A DNA stretch of 6,405 nt from a virus. Lineage: Duplodnaviria; Heunggongvirae; Uroviricota; Caudoviricetes. Position numbers and translations under genes: made by a program. The notes below the pieces were generated by a model. The model was not told the DNA's origin. It searched no databases and saw only the letters and a list, made by a program, of their open reading frames with translations. The first letter of the stretch is position 1. Each line of letters starts with the position of its first letter. The stretch is taken from IMG/VR virus record IMGVR_UViG_3300018479_000131; one strand, written 5' to 3'. This document shows positions 124-6,405 of the stretch, piece after piece.

Positions 124-726
124 TCATGGCATGGCCATGAGCATTTTCACGTCCGCATCACCGTCTGCTGACGTCTGTGGCACGCCACCCTGTACCGCTG
201 CCGGTGAATGGTTCGCCATGAAATGTTCAAACATGGCGGTTGTGGATGCAGAGACCGGTTCTGCCTTACCTGCTCCCGCCGCCAGCACAGCCCGGGCGCT
301 CTCCACAGTCATTCCCGGGCAGGCAGCCAGCTGTTCAGCCTGCGCCTCAGCCCCTTTTGCCTCATCCAGTGCTATGATCTGATCACGGAGTGATGGTCCG
401 GCATCCGCCTGCGGTGAAGCAGCCAGGATCGGGCGGGCTTTTTCCACCGTCATCTCCGGCATCGCCGCCAGCGTTGCCGCCAGTTGTTCACGACCGTTCG
501 CTTCTTCACACGCCATAATGCGATCGGCTTCACTCTGCGTGGATGCCACCGGCTGCTGCGGTGCCGCCGCGGCCAGAATCGCCCGGGCCTGTTCAACGCT
601 CATACCCTGTTGTCCTGCCAGCATCGTGGCAAGCTGTTCACGTCCTTTCGCTTCCTGGCATGTCAGGATCCCCATCACTCGCTGGTTCTCCTGCGCGGCG
701 GCTTCCGTTGCAGTTAATTGCGGCAT
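124..726 (-). CDS. Candidate nested in-frame scaffold protein (Nu3-like) from internal initiation within the gpC gene; the start codon is uncertain
   Basis: The in-frame ATG at 726..724 (Met302 of the gpC-like ORF) is preceded on the minus strand by GAGGAGG about 6 nt upstream (revcomp of 727-740 is TCAGAGGAGGCACT). In lambda, Nu3 is made by in-frame internal initiation inside C. Met231 (939..937) and Met241 (909..907) lie nearer the position of the lambda Nu3 start by alignment but have weaker ribosome-binding sites. Confidence 0.3.
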   Translation of the reverse strand: MPQLTATEAAAQENQRVMGILTCQEAKGREQLATMLAGQQGMSVEQARAILAAAAPQQPVASTQSEADRIMACEEANGREQLAATLAAMPEMTVEKARPILAASPQADAGPSLRDQIIALDEAKGAEAQAEQLAACPGMTVESARAVLAAGAGKAEPVSASTTAMFEHFMANHSPAAVQGGVPQTSADGDADVKMLMAMP

Positions 727-1629
727 AGTGCCTCCTCTGACATTACTGTTCAGCGCCGTGGCCATCACACTGATGGCATCCGACGCATTGATTAATTCAT
801 CCGCCAGCCCGGCCTCAATGCCGGACTGACCTTCAAAAACGGCAGCCTCTGTTCCCGTGACGGCATCAACAGACAGACCGGTATACATCGCCACTTTTTC
901 GGCAAACATCCGGCGCGCCGCATCAATCCGCTGCTGCATGTCCTGGCGAACCTCTGCCGGCAACGCTTCAAACTGATTGCCATCCACCTTGTGCGCCCCT
1001 GAGTAAATCAGCGTGATATCCACACCGGCCTGCGCCAGATGACCGGCATAGCTGACATGGCTCATCATCACGCCAATGGAGCCGATACGGGATGTCTGGG
1101 TAACCAGCCGTCGGGAGCAGGCCGACGCCAGCAGCATGGCTGCAGAACAGGCCGTGTCATTGCACAGTGCCCAGACCGGCTTCTGCTGACGGAGGCGGTA
1201 AATCATGTCAGCGCAGTCAAACGCGCCGGCGGCCTGCCCGCCCGGACTGTCAATGTCCAGCAGTACGCCCCGCACCTGGCTATCCGCCATTGCCTGCTGA
1301 AGACAGGCGACAATGCCGTCATATCCTGTCATTCCGGAAAATGGCCGCATACCACCCAGCCGGTGCACCAGCGTGCCGGTCACCGGCAGTACAGCAATAC
1401 CGTTCACCACCCGGTAAACACGGGCCGGTCGTTTACCTCCGGCCATATACTCGTCCGTTTCAGCCAGCATTCCGGGAGCATCAAGCTGTACCTGTTGTTG
1501 TGGTACCGAAAGACTTGCTGCCCCCATCTCGCGCCCGAGCGCGCAAAAGAAAACCCGCGCATAGGCGGGCTCCAGAAGCAGCGGTTCATTGAATGCTGCG
1601 GCAATAATGTGTGAAAGATTACGTCTCAC
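124..1629 (-). CDS. C: Prohead protease / capsid assembly protein (lambda gpC-like, S49/ClpP-like serine peptidase) with a C-terminal scaffold (Nu3-like) domain
   Basis: 501-aa ORF from the track. The N-terminal ~300 aa align by eye with lambda gpC (e.g. AFNEPLLLEPAYARVFFCAL, NGIAVLPVTGTLV, GMTGYDGI, PGGQAAGAFDCAD, KPVWALCNDTACSAA, SRRLVTQT, GSIGVMM, ITLIYSGAHKVDGN, YTGLSVDAV). A Cys-Ser-Ala motif sits where lambda gpC has its catalytic serine. The C-terminal part is a repeated scaffold-type motif. Confidence 0.93.
   Translation of the reverse strand: MRRNLSHIIAAAFNEPLLLEPAYARVFFCALGREMGAASLSVPQQQVQLDAPGMLAETDEYMAGGKRPARVYRVVNGIAVLPVTGTLVHRLGGMRPFSGMTGYDGIVACLQQAMADSQVRGVLLDIDSPGGQAAGAFDCADMIYRLRQQKPVWALCNDTACSAAMLLASACSRRLVTQTSRIGSIGVMMSHVSYAGHLAQAGVDITLIYSGAHKVDGNQFEALPAEVRQDMQQRIDAARRMFAEKVAMYTGLSVDAVTGTEAAVFEGQSGIEAGLADELINASDAISVMATALNSNVRGGTMPQLTATEAAAQENQRVMGILTCQEAKGREQLATMLAGQQGMSVEQARAILAAAAPQQPVASTQSEADRIMACEEANGREQLAATLAAMPEMTVEKARPILAASPQADAGPSLRDQIIALDEAKGAEAQAEQLAACPGMTVESARAVLAAGAGKAEPVSASTTAMFEHFMANHSPAAVQGGVPQTSADGDADVKMLMAMP
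250..680. repeat. Three tandem, diverged coding repeats (periods about 141 and 150 bp) encoding a triplicated ~47-50 aa scaffold-domain motif within the gpC/Nu3-like gene
   Basis: DNA anchors recur at 281-312 (GCCAGCACAGCCCGGGCG...CAGTCAT), 422-453 (GCCAGGATCGGGCGGGC...CCGTCAT) and 572-603 (GCCAGAATCGCCCGGGC...CGCTCAT). Matching protein repeats are ILTCQEAKGREQLATMLAGQQGMSVEQARAILAAA, IMACEEANGREQLAATLAAMPEMTVEKARPILAAS and IIALDEAKGAEAQAEQLAACPGMTVESARAVLAAG. Confidence 0.85.
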
Positions 1630-3211
1630 GTGGTGTTGTCTCCTCTTCCGGCCTGCGACTCTCCGCTATCTGCTGCTGATACGCCTGCGCTATCCACACC
1701 GGACGTGAGAGTCCGGCTTTTTCCCGCTCTGCAGATTCCCTGACCTGCTGGCGGAAAATGTCCTGATAATCCTCGCCCATCAGCGCCAGCTCTTTCTCAT
1801 ACGTGCTCAGTCCGGCCTCAATGCGCATCACTGATTCCTGGACTTCCTTGAGCCCGTCAATGGCCATTCTTCCGGCACCAATCCACTCTGCCCGTGACCA
1901 GGCTGATCGCGCCTGATAAAAATCAAAACGTGCCCGTGGCGGACGAATAATCCCCCGAAGAAGTGCCTCTTCCAGCCAGCAGGAAAACATCTGCGTGGCC
2001 AGCCGGGCCGCAATAAATTTTCGCCGCCCCATAAAATAGCGCCACGACTCATTGGCGGAGGCGCGGGCACTTGAGTAACTGACCTTCGAGTAGTCACGGG
2101 ACAACTGTTCGTAGGAAACGCCAAGACCGGCGGCGATATACCGCAGCAGCGCCTGTTCAAGCGCAGAAAATCCATTGTCTGAATCCTGCGCGGTCTGCAG
2201 TTTCAGATCATCCCCGGGGAAAAGGTGCGGAATTTTGACACCGCCCAGCGTCACGTGATTCGTGTCATACCAGTTGGAGAACTTCTCCAGAATATTAATA
2301 AGCGGATTATCCTTCTGCCCCTGCGGCGCACCGGCGATATATTCAAAGGCCTTTTCGGTATCAAGTTCACTTTCGATTGTGGCTGCATACATGGCCTTCA
2401 CAATGGCCGACTGAAGCTGTGTTACCTGCAGGGAATCGAGCATCTTCAGCCGCTCCATGACGCTGTAAAACTGATTAGCCCCACGGGTCTGCCCGTCCTC
2501 CACCGGCTCGAAAATATGCAGCATGGCCGGACGCCCGGTGGGAAGTTCACGCGGGATCCGTTCCCATCCTCCACTACCAGAGAACGGAAAATCATCCTCA
2601 CAGATGTGGTACGCAACGGCACGGCCATATCGATCGACCTCCACACCGGCCCGCAGAAAACGGTTCCCCATACCGTGTCCTGGCGTGTCCACCCGTTTCG
2701 GACTCACGGCTTTAAAACGCGTACGGAATAACTGCGTGGTTTCCGTATCCCAGACCGGCTGCACAAATATTTCGCCGTTAAACGCATGAACGCCCACACC
2801 TTCACGGATAAATTCCGTGAAGGTGCGTTTTCCTTCCACGTCGATCTCGCCAAACATCCCTTCGGCGTATTCCGACCAGGCCGCCTCCACCTCATCGACA
2901 AAGCTTTTTGCTGCAGTCTCCCGCATCCCCAGCCAGCGCCAGTTCGGACGGTAGCTGATCAGAAACATATGCCCGACAATGTGATCTTTATGCAGGGCCA
3001 CCGCATTAGCCGCTATTCCGTTATTGCGCACCAGATCATCTGCCCGGGCATTCCCCAGACGCAACGCGGGCAGCAGGGCCGCATCGGCACTCTGCGCCGG
3101 TGGCAACCACTCCGCCATTTGCCCGCCAAATCCTGCGCCGCCCCCGTTGTAGCTGAGACTCTCACGAAGCGGAACGCCGTTCACATCAATCAGGACAGGC
3201 GTTAGTTTCAT
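1619..3211 (-). CDS. B: Portal protein (lambda gpB-like)
   Basis: 530-aa ORF. Motifs shared with lambda gpB as recalled include GGGAGFGGQ, DAALLP, GNARADDLVRNNG, HAFNGEIFVQ, WDT, LFRTRFKAVSPKR, EPVEDGQTRGAN, FYSVME, KMLDSLQ, TQLQSAIVKAMYAATIESELDT, LLRYIAAGLGVSYEQLSRDY, YSSARASANESW, FMGRRKF, WSRAEWIGAGRMAIDGLKEVQE and IEAGLSTYEKE. Its start overlaps the gpW stop by 4 nt (ATGA), and its 3' end overlaps the gpC start by 11 nt. Confidence 0.95.
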   Translation of the reverse strand: MKLTPVLIDVNGVPLRESLSYNGGGAGFGGQMAEWLPPAQSADAALLPALRLGNARADDLVRNNGIAANAVALHKDHIVGHMFLISYRPNWRWLGMRETAAKSFVDEVEAAWSEYAEGMFGEIDVEGKRTFTEFIREGVGVHAFNGEIFVQPVWDTETTQLFRTRFKAVSPKRVDTPGHGMGNRFLRAGVEVDRYGRAVAYHICEDDFPFSGSGGWERIPRELPTGRPAMLHIFEPVEDGQTRGANQFYSVMERLKMLDSLQVTQLQSAIVKAMYAATIESELDTEKAFEYIAGAPQGQKDNPLINILEKFSNWYDTNHVTLGGVKIPHLFPGDDLKLQTAQDSDNGFSALEQALLRYIAAGLGVSYEQLSRDYSKVSYSSARASANESWRYFMGRRKFIAARLATQMFSCWLEEALLRGIIRPPRARFDFYQARSAWSRAEWIGAGRMAIDGLKEVQESVMRIEAGLSTYEKELALMGEDYQDIFRQQVRESAEREKAGLSRPVWIAQAYQQQIAESRRPEEETTPRET

Positions 3212-3414
3212 AACCTCACTCCCAGCGGACGACGGCGACGTCGGGTTGTCCCCAGTACCGACTCCGCATCATTGATCGCCCGGTTAAGCTCATCCAGAGA
3301 AGCCGCCGTATATTCAATTCTGCGACCATCTTTCTGGACAGACACCACCCGTTTACCGGTTAATAAATCAAGGCGCGCCTGACGCAGCGCCTGCAGTTCA
3401 GCGACTGTAACCAT
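3208..3414 (-). CDS. W: Head-tail joining / head completion protein (lambda gpW-like)
   Basis: 68 aa, the same length as lambda gpW. Its sequence [51 protein letters not shown]...RRRRP parallels lambda W (TGKRVATVQKDGRRVEFTA...RRRGP) as recalled. A GGAGGA Shine-Dalgarno lies upstream, and the gene sits between the terminase large subunit and portal genes. Confidence 0.9.
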   Translation of the reverse strand: MVTVAELQALRQARLDLLTGKRVVSVQKDGRRIEYTAASLDELNRAINDAESVLGTTRRRRRPLGVRL

Positions 3415-5326
3415 TCACTCCTCCGGACAGCTTCGCTGCCAGTTCTTTAAGGGTTGGCCGGGTCGTCTCTTCTTCCCGGGATTTTGCCAGTACAGCCAGA
3501 TCAAGCTGCCAGCGCTGCACGGACACACGTAATGCCGCGTAGGCATACACCAGGCAGTCCAGCGCTTCGTTACGCCGCTTTTTGTTATCCCACAGCAGAC
3601 GCATCTTTCCTTTTTCCCACTTCTCCACAAGCTCTTCCGCAACCAGTTGCTGCGCCTCTGTCTGCGAAAAAATCTCCGGATCATCAGGAAAACGGATGGC
3701 ATACGACGTGGCTTCATCCGCAGGCGTGGGATCGGCTTTCATACGGGCATAGAGAATCTCTTTTGCGGTGTCCGTCCCCACTTCACACAGATACACGCCC
3801 CGCTGATTGCGGGTTTTTGGCATGGTGATCACCGGCTTGCCATAGACAGATGCGCCTTTTACCGGCAGCACCCGGAAAACACCGTGTTTTTTTGACCTCT
3901 GATAAACGATTTCGCCATCGATCCCCCCGATGTCCCAGCAGACACGGGAAATGGTCATTTCGGTTCCGTCTGCATGACGGTATTTTTTGTTGATCGCCGC
4001 ATCCACACGTAACAGCGTCTCTTCCTCATCGGGACGCCCCATAATGATGATTTTATCCACCAGAAAGGCTTCCTCTCCCGGAGCCCATCCCCAGACATAC
4101 ATCTCAAAACGGTTTCGCTGCGAGTCAATGCCCGCCGTCAGATAAACCACCCGGGCAGGCACTGCCGCCGTGTAACGCACAACCTTATCCATCAGTACCT
4201 GGTGATCGAGTTTTTCGCCCACGGCCTCTTCCCAGGTCTCGCCCAGCGTGGTGTTCACAAAGGTTTTCAGGCCGTTGGGATCTTTCAGTGCATCCAGCCA
4301 GTCATAGACAATCTGTACCCAGGTGGTGAACGGACTGTACGCCGTCCAGATATGGAACGTGATGGAGCGCGGCGGCGGAATTTCATTACCCGCAGCGCTG
4401 AAAAACATCAGACCGTCACGGGTCCACATGCCCGTGTTTTCACAAATCCACCGCCCGTTGCTCTGGTCCAGTTCAGACTGATGGATCACGCAGCCATGAT
4501 GTTCACAGAGGTAGAAAACACTTTCGGGACTGTCCTTCTCCCATTTAAGCCCAAAAGGCGTGGACTCATCGCCAAATTTCAGATACTGCTCCTCCCCACA
4601 GTGCGGGCAGGGCACATAAAAACGCATGAAATGCGCCGACTCGTTGGCCGCTTTTTCGATCTGGCAGGAGCCTTTTATTTTAGGCGTCGAGCCGCGAATG
4701 GATTTTGGCCATACAGAGCCCTCAATACGCTTATCCCCCAGCAGGGTTGGCGAGCCCTCTTTTTCAACATCCGGCTCGAACGAGGAAAGTTCGTCATAGC
4801 AGACCACATCCACGGATTTTTCACGGTAGTTTTTGGCGGCAGCACCACCCAGGCACCAAAAACCCACACGGGAAGTGAATCTTTTTAATGTCAGCGTGTT
4901 ATCCCGGTGCTTACGTCCCAGCCAGGGGGAAAGAATTTTCAGACAGGGAACATCCCGTAATGTTGACTCCACATGAGACTTCATAAAATCTTCAGCGGCA
5001 GAATCCGTAGGCTGAAACAGAAGACTGTTACGGTTTTTATGCTCAATAAAGTAACCAATAACGCCCATCAGCATTTTGGTGTAACCGACTCGAGCTGATT
5101 TTATAAGATTAATCGTGCGGATCCGGTCATTACCCATGCAGTTCATTATTGCCACCTGAAATGGCAACGTCTTCCACCGCCCAGCAAGATAAGAGGACTC
5201 CGGGGGCAAATAATAATTTTGATCGGCCCATTCAACGGTGGTTACAGGCAGTGGGCGTAAAAGCCCACGAAGTGCCACTCCACAAACAACAGCAAAGTTA
5301 TTTAGCTGCTTCTCTGAGGTATTCAT
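3398..5326 (-). CDS. A: Terminase large subunit (lambda gpA-like)
   Basis: 642 aa against 641 in lambda gpA. Long colinear matches by eye include [192 protein letters not shown] and [13 protein letters not shown]. Confidence 0.96.
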
Positions 5327-5846
5327 CCAGCATCTCCGGTAACTTCTCTGCCGTTGATGCGCATCGGTTTGCCGCCTTTGCTATATCGGTTTTCAGGAAA
5401 TCAAGCATAGCGGGCGTCAGTGCCGAAAACTGTCTCTGCATGGACAATGGAATGGAGTCAAGAATGGCAGAGATCTCCTGTGCCAGTCTTCCCAGAGCAA
5501 AAAGGCAAAACCCTGTATCAATGACCTGCCCACTGTCGCGGGCATTTTTCAGTTCCTGTGCATCTGCCTGTGCCTTCGTCAGTCGGTAACGTTCGTAATC
5601 AATGGTGCCGGGCTGAAGGTCTGATTCGCTGGCAGCCCTCAAATCCTCGACCTCTTTACGGAGTTTTTCGTTTTCAATATCAGCTTCGCGCTGCGCATAC
5701 CACTGAATGGCAGCAGTTGTATCAAAAACTGATTCAGTCCCTTTCCCTCCACCAGAAACTAGTGGTAACCCCTGACTCTGCCAGGCGGTGATGGTCCTGA
5801 CATCAACGCCAAAAATATCGGCCAGTTTTTTCTTATTGACGTTCAT
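5298..5846 (-). CDS. nu1: Terminase small subunit (lambda Nu1-like)
   Basis: 182 aa against 181 in lambda Nu1. It has an N-terminal helix-turn-helix-like segment ([24 protein letters not shown]) and a GGGKGTES motif (nt 5730-5753, minus strand), and is colinear with lambda Nu1 as recalled ([52 protein letters not shown]). It overlaps the gpA-like start by 29 nt and lies immediately downstream of cos. Confidence 0.95.
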
Positions 5847-5865
5847 ACACTCATCCGGAAACCAG

Positions 5866-5918
5866 AAAGGATCTGAAAATGGCGTTTTCGGACAAAAACA
5901 GCCTTTGTCAGATCCTTT
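5866..5918. promoter_or_regulatory. Perfect 11-bp inverted repeat with a 31-bp spacer inside cosB; candidate paired binding sites (R-site-like) for the small terminase subunit
   Basis: AAAGGATCTGA at 5866-5876 and TCAGATCCTTT at 5908-5918 are exact reverse complements. The element lies 20-70 bp upstream of the Nu1 start, where lambda carries the inverted R2/R1-type elements. Confidence 0.55.
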
Positions 5919-5941
5919 TATATTTTTAATATTCTATTGAT

Positions 5942-5954
5942 AATCAATCAGTTA
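5942..5954. promoter_or_regulatory. IHF binding-site consensus match (candidate I1-like site of cosB)
   Basis: AATCAATCAGTTA matches the IHF consensus WATCAANNNNTTR exactly. It is embedded in an AT-rich tract between the R3-like element and the inverted repeat, as the IHF site I1 is in lambda cosB. Confidence 0.5.
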
Positions 5955-6015
5955 AAAAGAAGAAGAACGGATCTACTTTTTCCCGAAAAATTTTCATAAA
6001 TAGTGAAAACGCGCG

Positions 6016-6027
6016 AGGTCGCCGCCC
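6016..6027. other. cosN: the 12-bp lambda-type cohesive-end sequence (terminase nicking site)
   Basis: 6016-6027 reads AGGTCGCCGCCC, the exact reverse complement of the lambda cohesive end GGGCGGCGACCT, and is flanked on both sides by near-lambda-identical sequence. Confidence 0.9.
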
Positions 6028-6058
6028 CGTAACCTGTCGGATCGCCGGAAAGGACCCG
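6028..6058. promoter_or_regulatory. cosQ-containing segment (right-end side of cos)
   Basis: CGTAACCTGTCGGATCGCCGGAAAGGACCCG is the reverse complement of the last ~31 bp of the lambda genome right end (…CGGGTCCTTTCCGGTGATCCGACAGGTTACG as recalled), with a single mismatch. Confidence 0.8.
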
Positions 6059-6226: not shown

Positions 6227-6405
6227 ATGTCAACTAAGAACAGAACCCGCAGAACAACAACCCGCAACATCCGCTTTCCTAACCAAATGATTGAACAAAT
6301 TAACATCGCTCTTGAGCAAAAAGGGTCTGGGAATTTCTCAGCCTGGGTCATTGAAGCCTGCCGTCGGAGACTAACGTCAGAAAAGAGAGCATATACATCA
6401 ATCCA
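6227..6405 (+). CDS. Small basic protein, 3'-truncated at the window end; resembles the DUF3950 YlcI/YnfO family of lambdoid prophages; possible ribbon-helix-helix DNA-binding fold
   Basis: ATG at 6227 opens a frame with no stop to the window end, translating as MSTKNRTRRTTTRNIRFPNQMIEQINIALEQKGSGNFSAWVIEACRRRLTSEKRAYTSI. The six-frame track omits it because it has no stop. The pattern is basic N-terminus, short beta-like strand (NIRFP), helix, Gly turn, helix. In E. coli K-12 prophages, ylcI and ynfO lie next to Nu1 homologues (noh genes) as I recall. The ribosome-binding site is weak (GGGG about 8 nt upstream). Confidence 0.55.
   Translation, partial: MSTKNRTRRTTTRNIRFPNQMIEQINIALEQKGSGNFSAWVIEACRRRLTSEKRAYTSI

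Follow-up and report, generated by a model that had tools for sequence, protein, structure and literature searches.

An Escherichia coli prophage cosB of the Gifsy-1 packaging-specificity class, in which an inverted repeat upstream of Nu1 very probably corresponds to terminase sites R2 and R1

The model for phage lambda cosB holds that a bend introduced by IHF lets a dimer of the small terminase subunit (TerS, or Nu1) dock on sites R3 and R2, and not on R2 and R1, with R3 being the critical site (PMC4669245, PMC9026076, PMC4856287). As described in two reports (PMC4669245, PMC9026076), the lambda/21 genetics of Feiss and colleagues assigns the specificity contacts to TerS residues 20 and 24 and to base pairs 56 and 59, and includes a contact between Glu24 and bp 56. 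The phage 21 record (M81255), which we converted such that bp 1 is record position 167, annotates R1-R4 and I0-I2, placing R3 at bp 50-65, I1 at bp 72-86, R2 at bp 107-122 and R1 at bp 150-165. Phage N15 is functional with R3 alone, and a deletion between R3 and R1 has been proposed as the route by which its cosB originated (PMC4669245). For the Salmonella phage Gifsy-1 (NC_010392), published reviews give cosB as R3-I1-R2-R1, and a 2016 paper aligns its R3, underlined in a figure. We found no binding, bending or packaging experiments on Gifsy-1 cosB in the literature searched, and no experimental packaging-specificity data for the Gifsy-1 class in those papers.

The DNA analysed here, referred to as the window, is a stretch of 6,405 nucleotides. 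Sequence comparison identifies it as the left end, in reverse complement, of a prophage of E. coli that resembles lambda, and a prophage in E. coli RM8082 (L005) is 99.5% identical to it. According to the open reading frame (ORF) list and Pfam matches, the minus strand carries a lambda-type operon for head formation and packaging:

124-1629, minus strand: S49 peptidase/C-like gene (ORF list, Pfam)
1619-3211, minus strand: portal gene
3208-3414, minus strand: W-like gene
3398-5326, minus strand: gene for the gpA-type large terminase subunit (Pfam GpA_ATPase 8e-55, GpA_nuclease 7.5e-71)
5298-5846, minus strand: Nu1/TerS gene, 182 aa (Pfam Phage_Nu1, E=5e-84)
5775-5798, minus strand: TerS recognition helix RTITAWQS, residues 17-24 (alignment with lambda, 21 and Gifsy-1)

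A Nu1-family small terminase gene, whose product has a winged helix-turn-helix (wHTH) domain at its N-terminus, thus adjoins the cos region, with the gene for a gpA-type large subunit next to it. Lambda TerS belongs to the same Pfam family, and the solved structures nearest to the TerS of the window in a PDB search are those of lambda gpNu1, 6hn7 (7e-43) and 1j9i (1e-25).

In phage orientation, where coordinate n corresponds to window position 6028 - n and bp 1 lies at 6027, the predicted layout of the region is cosQ - cosN - I2 - R3 - I1 - R2 - R1 - Nu1, with the following elements:

6051-6057, minus strand: cosQ region, GGGTCCT, inside the invariant block GGGTCCTTTCCGG (6045-6057)
6016-6027 (phage bp 1-12), minus strand: cosN cohesive end GGGCGGCGACCT, identical at 12 of 12 positions to lambda/DE3 and phage 21
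5979-6010 (about phage bp 18-49), minus strand: I2, the AT-rich cosN-cosB spacer, which aligns with I2 of lambda and 21
5963-5978 (bp 50-65), minus strand: R3, the third predicted TerS site, AAGTAGATCCGTTCTT, at the position of R3 in lambda and 21
5942-5954 (bp 74-86), plus strand (phage bottom strand): I1, IHF core consensus AATCAATCAGTTA, the only exact match in the window
5906-5921 (bp 107-122), plus strand: R2, predicted inverted copy, TGTCAGATCCTTTTAT, oriented opposite to R1 and R3 (likewise in lambda and 21)
5863-5878 (bp 150-165), minus strand: R1, the predicted TerS site nearest Nu1, TTTCAGATCCTTTCTG, at the position of the annotated R1 of phage 21 and of lambda R1

The Nu1 ATG follows at phage bp 182. 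Read on the minus strand from 6060 downward, the sequence GGGTCCTTTCCGG...TTACG followed directly by GGGCGGCGACCTCGC is that of the lambda cosQ block and cohesive end, and the DE3 record annotates its cos site on a stretch equal to the cohesive end of the window. A 12-nt 5' cohesive end akin to that of lambda therefore lies beside cosB. From the lambda literature we take cosQ to comprise the 7 bp GGGTCCT. The cosQ block is the same in seven compared cos regions whatever their R core, with phage 21 one base off (GGGTCCTTTCCGT). Because this R-like block remains constant across R-core types, it does not covary with the recognition helix of TerS, unlike R1-R3. Published work gives I2 an extent of about bp 18-50 (PMC4856287).

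The original prediction pointed to a perfect 11-bp inverted repeat directly upstream of the Nu1 start and to an AT-rich tract with an exact IHF consensus, and a sequence check agrees on each point. The arms AAAGGATCTGA (5866-5876) and TCAGATCCTTT (5908-5918) enclose a 31-bp spacer (5877-5907), 19 bp separate the end of the repeat from the ATG (ORF 5298-5846, minus strand), and the exact match to WATCAANNNNTTR occupies 5942-5954 on the plus strand. A repeat finder returns the same pair of arms, extended to 23 nt with 83% complementarity. Statistics alone do not make either feature compelling. Perfect inverted repeats of at least 11 bp with a spacer of at most 50 bp arise in 8% of whole-window dinucleotide shuffles, and one or more IHF-consensus matches in 27 of 200 shuffles (13.5%), with 0.14 exact matches to WATCAANNNNTTR expected by chance in the 6405-bp window and one observed. 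Moreover, no perfect short-range inverted repeat in the window is longer than an unrelated one of 12 bp with a 5-nt loop in the portal gene (2797-2825; CACCTTCACGGA / TCCGTGAAGGTG).

These frequencies would allow the repeat and the IHF match to be chance features of an AT-rich intergenic region. However, shuffles of the 381-bp intergenic region itself yield such a repeat in only 0.75% of cases, positions and cores are conserved in divergent relatives, three copies of the element are present, and their sequence covaries with the recognition helix, as described below. The conservation of cosB and the covariation of helix and R core effectively refute a chance origin, which we regard as vanishingly improbable. 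The 9-mer AGATCC[GT]TT occurs three times in the window, always within 5866-5974 (minus strand at 5974 and 5874, plus strand at 5910). It is this context of three 9-mer copies and conserved positions, and not the statistics, that marks the repeat and the IHF match as non-random.

Each arm of the repeat is contained in a predicted R element, the left arm in R1 and the right arm in R2. In phage coordinates the 9-mer is direct in R3 (bp 54-62) and in R1 (bp 154-162), and inverted in R2 (bp 110-118). R3, with core AGATCCGTTCTT, is a direct repeat of R1 at a distance of exactly 100 bp (5864-5874 and 5964-5974 according to the repeat finder), and R2 is inverted with respect to both. At the sequence level, I1 is an exact consensus match at the same place and on the same strand as the annotated I1 of phage 21, and its core is flanked 5' by an AT-rich tract (5919-5941), a feature of strong IHF sites. 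Since the positions of R3, I1, R2 and R1 agree to within 1-2 bp with those of the phage 21 and lambda sites, the inverted repeat should correspond to R2/R1 and the IHF match to I1. Together with the lambda-identical cohesive end, the placement of R3, I1, R2 and R1 bears out the earlier proposal that this region is the cosB of a lambda-type cos site. We therefore consider it very likely that the inverted repeat represents R2 and R1 in a complex cosB of the lambda type, belonging to the Gifsy-1 packaging-specificity class. Two inverted sites had been counted originally; both arms are indeed R elements, but the third copy, R3 at 5963-5978, had been overlooked. The R elements also reach outward past the perfect repeat (CCTTTCT), and the functional core is presumably shorter than 11 bp because the innermost two arm bases (TGA/TCA) vary among relatives.

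Comparison with lambda reveals an identical cosN and cosQ block and the same positions for R3 (bp 50-65), R2 and R1. The differences are concentrated in the specificity determinants, with AGA in place of the lambda GTT at bp 54-56, and T, A and S at helix residues 20, 21 and 24 in place of the Q, N and E of the lambda helix RTIQNWQE. The half-site is thus distinct from the CGTTTCC of lambda, as had been noted, and has AGATCC as its core. By analogy with lambda and 21, these differences in core and helix lead us to predict a packaging specificity different from that of lambda. In phage 21, the sites R3, I1, R2 and R1 lie within 1-3 bp of those in the window, and Ser24 of the helix is common to both. 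Nonetheless, phage 21 has the core (G/A)TGTCGG and the helix RTIERWQS, and bp 59 of the window is C, as in lambda, and not G. As in the simple cosB of N15, the wHTH domain of TerS would read R3 at a fixed distance from cosN, but the window keeps a full tripartite cosB with I1 where N15 has a single R3.

The closest correspondence is with Gifsy-1. AGATCC is present in R3 (CCAGATCCGTTCTTCTT), R2 (GAAAGGATCTGC) and R1 (GCAGATCCTTTCC) of Gifsy-1 just as in all three R elements of the window, the order and spacing of R3-I1-R2-R1 are the same, and the recognition helices are nearly identical (RTVTAWQS in Gifsy-1, RTITAWQS in the window), both conforming to RT(I/V)TAWQS. The suggestion that the half-site defines a new recognition element therefore fails, as core and helix are already present in this Salmonella phage and the reviews already list R3-I1-R2-R1 for it. 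The window is best described as an E. coli member of the Gifsy-1 class that had already been noted. The two loci differ in other respects. Their hosts are E. coli and Salmonella, respectively. The cohesive end of the window is that of lambda, whereas Gifsy-1 differs at bp 8, 9 and 11. The spacers and the rest of TerS are ~30% diverged, and the C-terminal part of TerS and the large subunit (TerL) come from a lineage other than that of Gifsy-1, resembling PhiR5_1. Finally, the exact IHF match at bp 74-86 contrasts with a best match in Gifsy-1 that has two mismatches and lies at bp 88-100.

A comparison of the arms with the recognition helix of Nu1 across relatives had been proposed as a check, and it uncovers clear covariation. 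A search with an alignment of six Nu1 proteins yielded 27 genome loci and 80 viral contigs, and 102 loci provided a Nu1 start together with the region upstream of it. In the ~85 loci whose cos is complete, the identity of helix residues 20, 21 and 24 goes without exception with that of the R core at bp 54-59:

Helix RTIQNWQ(E/D), R core (G/A)TTTCC: 30 loci
Helix RT(I/V)TAWQS, R core AGATCC: 20 loci
Helix RTIERWQ(S/T/M), R core (G/A)TGTCG: 24 loci
Helix RTIDRWQT, R core ATGTC(A/G): 5 loci

Across the three main classes all three R sites change in concert, and R2 is more degenerate (e.g. TGTGACG) in the small RTIDRWQT and RTIERWQT groups. The residues (20, 21 and 24) and base pairs (54-56 and 59) that vary are those identified by lambda/21 specificity genetics. 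Given this covariation, the arms very probably are recognition elements for the small terminase, in line with the original prediction. With at least four classes of helix and R core and zero mismatched combinations, the loci constitute a natural data set for the lambda/21 specificity system.

Further indications that the DNA-binding domain of TerS reads the R sites come from a natural exchange of the two together:

5703-5975: exchangeable specificity cassette of 273 bp, comprising the TerS DNA-binding domain (aa 1-48), R1, R2, I1 and the R3 core

Aligned with phage PhiR5_1 (L002), which has an IDRWQT helix and ATGTC-type R sites, the window exhibits three mismatches in 5200-5693 and two in 5976-6033, and mismatches are dense across 5703-5975. 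The edges of this mosaic are sharp, with ~100% identity outside the block and 54-70% inside. The block is bounded by TerS residue 48 and the R3 specificity bases, and it contains nothing beyond the components listed. Near-identical flanks around a divergent block indicate that the two packaging operons differ by a co-inherited module of domain plus sites, swapped between terminase operons that are otherwise nearly identical. We regard this exchange as strong, albeit indirect, evidence that the domain recognizes the R sites.

Lack of conservation of the arms among close relatives would have spoken against such a role, but the arm cores proved to be conserved. The TAWQS helix is present in 24 of the 102 loci, and these 24 yield 19 different sequences of cosB. 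Among them are Gifsy-1, a Providencia contig, and two contigs (L081 and L084) in which cosN and the spacers are very different from those of the window. Across the 19 sequences the spacers have diverged, yet the R cores are essentially constant. R1 is invariant as AGATCCTTTC in all 18 that retain it, with diverging flanks. R2 is invariant as AAAGGATCT in the class except in the Providencia contig (L024), where a G-to-T change gives AAAGGAAGT, and in one locus that has no R2 (L065). R3 is invariant as AGATCCGTTCTTCTT but for one T substitution (L068/L072) and an R3-R1 fusion in L065.

In the cosB of L065 (IMGVR_UViG_2529293040_000025), a clean deletion of 100 bp has joined R3 to R1 (...AAAATCAGATCCTTTCTGGTTCCC...), and the ATG lies at bp 82. 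The deletion corresponds to window positions 5874-5974 and removes both I1 and R2; the TerS helix is as in the window. This naturally occurring "simple cosB" fits the unequal crossover between R3 and R1 proposed by Feiss for the origin of N15 cosB.

The IHF site is also positionally conserved. Within the R3-R2 interval, the bottom-strand position that best fits WATCAANNNNTTR is bp 74-86 for nearly all helix classes, and a single mismatch (AAACAA) is usual there. Exceptions are the common lambda type (bp 79-91), Gifsy-1 and a few single loci. In E. coli members of the class the match is exact, and occurs in four variants that differ only in N positions. IHF dependence may nonetheless vary within the class, because the match in Gifsy-1 has two mismatches and is shifted. 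By way of the IHF-H' crystal structure, we estimate that an IHF bend would be centred at approximately bp 87-88, just 5' of WATCAA. This is close to the midpoint of the R3 and R2 cores at bp 86.

If the findings for lambda and phage 21 can be extrapolated to this locus, R3, R2 and R1 would have the following roles. The wHTH domain of TerS would read each R element (core AGATCC[G/T]TT) in the major groove. IHF bound at I1 (5942-5954) would fold the DNA into a U-turn in which R3 and R2 face each other, and one TerS dimer would dock on both. The docked TerS would anchor the large subunit for nicking at cosN, ~50 bp away, and R1 would have an accessory function, engaging another TerS domain within the oligomeric holoenzyme. 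Binding, bend and bridged pair of sites would in this case all be as deduced for lambda and 21, and no new mechanism is revealed.

It had been proposed instead that a TerS dimer contacts the two arms in an IHF-bent cosB. One component of this proposal is consistent with our data, in that I1 occupies the position of its phage 21 counterpart. The other needs correcting, since the IHF match falls in the R2-R3 interval and thus not within the repeat, and the bridged pair of sites in the literature is R3-R2. A dimer bridging R2 and R1, with the two arms as the recognition element, is not without attraction. The arms are perfect, symmetric and conserved, their centres are ~42 bp (four helical turns) apart, the spacer between them has short A and T runs and an inner dyad, and TerS is dimeric (PMC9026076). 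However, there is no IHF consensus between the arms. In the published model and genetics, the dimer sits on R3 and R2, and R3 is the critical site. Two natural cases also argue against it: L065 has a single fused R3/R1 copy and no R2, and N15 functions with R3 alone. We therefore consider it very unlikely that the dimer bridges the two arms, and favor docking on R3 and R2.

The repeat might also be mainly a nucleic-acid structure, such as a stem-loop in the late mRNA just upstream of Nu1, with effects on mRNA stability, processing or pausing, or a cruciform in supercoiled DNA, with protein binding being secondary. The R2-R1 segment of the window indeed folds as a long hairpin (-24.1 kcal/mol, z ~ -4.7), the same segment in lambda and 21 reaches -33 to -36 kcal/mol, and compensatory changes are found across classes in 8 of 10 outer-stem pairs. 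Yet compensatory change in the arms is equally expected from two inverted copies of one protein site. R3 cannot join the hairpin and nonetheless changes in step with the arms, which favors protein sites over RNA structure. A scan found no terminator-like site in 5860-5920, and RNAalifold on 14 representatives recovered only the outer R2/R1 stem, with inner stems unaligned and hence no conserved inner stem. Within the spacer, folding reveals a central element:

5881-5903, plus-strand reading: inner dyad of the R2-R1 spacer, GGCGTTTT-CGGACA-AAAACAGCC

By itself the spacer folds with -7.7 kcal/mol (P ~0.03-0.04 relative to shuffles). For the spacers of 13 clusters of lambda-like cosB sequences, the combined Fisher P is 2e-5, compared to 0.13 for the I1 control region (dinucleotide shuffles). 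A central dyad is present in the R2-R1 spacers of most lambda-like cosBs (L001-L095), and its sequence differs by lineage. This dyad may have a structural role or may be the relic of an ancestral palindrome. Overall, a primarily structural function of the repeat appears improbable, although a hairpin could coexist, as an extra function, with the protein sites that we favor. The ribosome-binding region of Nu1 would lie outside such a hairpin because R1 ends 19 nt before the ATG. As for known RNA families, the only Rfam matches were two to microRNA precursors, at 19-20 bits and far below gathering scores above 80, and these reflect hairpin shape. In the AT-rich I1 region, five weak sigma-70-like matches were found where 1.6 are expected.

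A property that sets the R sites of the window apart from those of lambda and 21, which lack GATC, is that all three are Dam sites, because AGATCC, the R core of this class, contains GATC (5870-5873, 5911-5914 and 5970-5973). In R3, the adenine open to methylation is bp 56, a specificity position. Cleavage of phage P1 pac depends on Dam methylation. By analogy, TerS binding, and hence the initiation of packaging, might depend on the Dam methylation state of cosB in the Gifsy-1 class, which would make this a methylation-gated cos site; we consider this unlikely but conceivable. The lambda/21 genetics describes bp 56 as the contact of TerS residue 24 (PMC4669245). A search for literature linking Dam methylation with cos or terminase returned nothing relevant, and a Salmonella Dam paper concerns int/xis of ST64B and not cosB.

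Of 5426 complete E. coli genomes, 223 carry the cassette of DNA-binding domain and cosB with an identity of at least 95%, such that the present assignment annotates the packaging signal of a prophage family carried by ~4% of them. Among isolated phages in the phage collection, the cassette has no match at the megablast level. Megablast matches to lambda-like phages begin only at 5950-5983, on the cosN side, and the nearest phages by blastn are PhiR5_1, which has a different cassette, SerU-LTIIb and Gifsy-1. Correlations between helix and R core could be used to predict which helper phages mobilise which cos-bearing elements, and to engineer orthogonal pairs of cos and terminase.

Lambda-type Nu1/cosB sequences were also found on mostly very short genome contigs (L014-L017, L019, L022 and L027-L029) from assemblies labelled Kitasatospora, Chromatium, Paenibacillus, Pseudomonas, Bradyrhizobium, Ancylomarina, Algoriphagus and Tardiphaga. 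The recognition helix is identical in these contigs wherever the N-terminus is present, and contamination with lambda DNA is the most likely source.

The RM8082 prophage (L005) carries a gene for an "enterotoxin A family protein" (11361-12152) just upstream of its holin and lysozyme genes, and SerU-LTIIb (type II heat-labile enterotoxin), a partial phage, likewise has a match to the Nu1 region. On these grounds, the window may derive from a lineage of LT-II-type toxin-converting prophages. Beyond the cos site, an ORF at 6227-6405 on the plus strand runs off the end of the window and encodes a DUF3950 protein of the YlcI/YnfO family (Pfam 1.6e-20), with Nu1 on the other strand and transcription of the ORF leading away from cos. 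At the other end, the C-terminal half of the S49 peptidase/C-like protein (124-1629) contains approximately three tandem 35-residue repeats (EAKGREQLATMLAGQQGMSVEQARAILAAA and variants).
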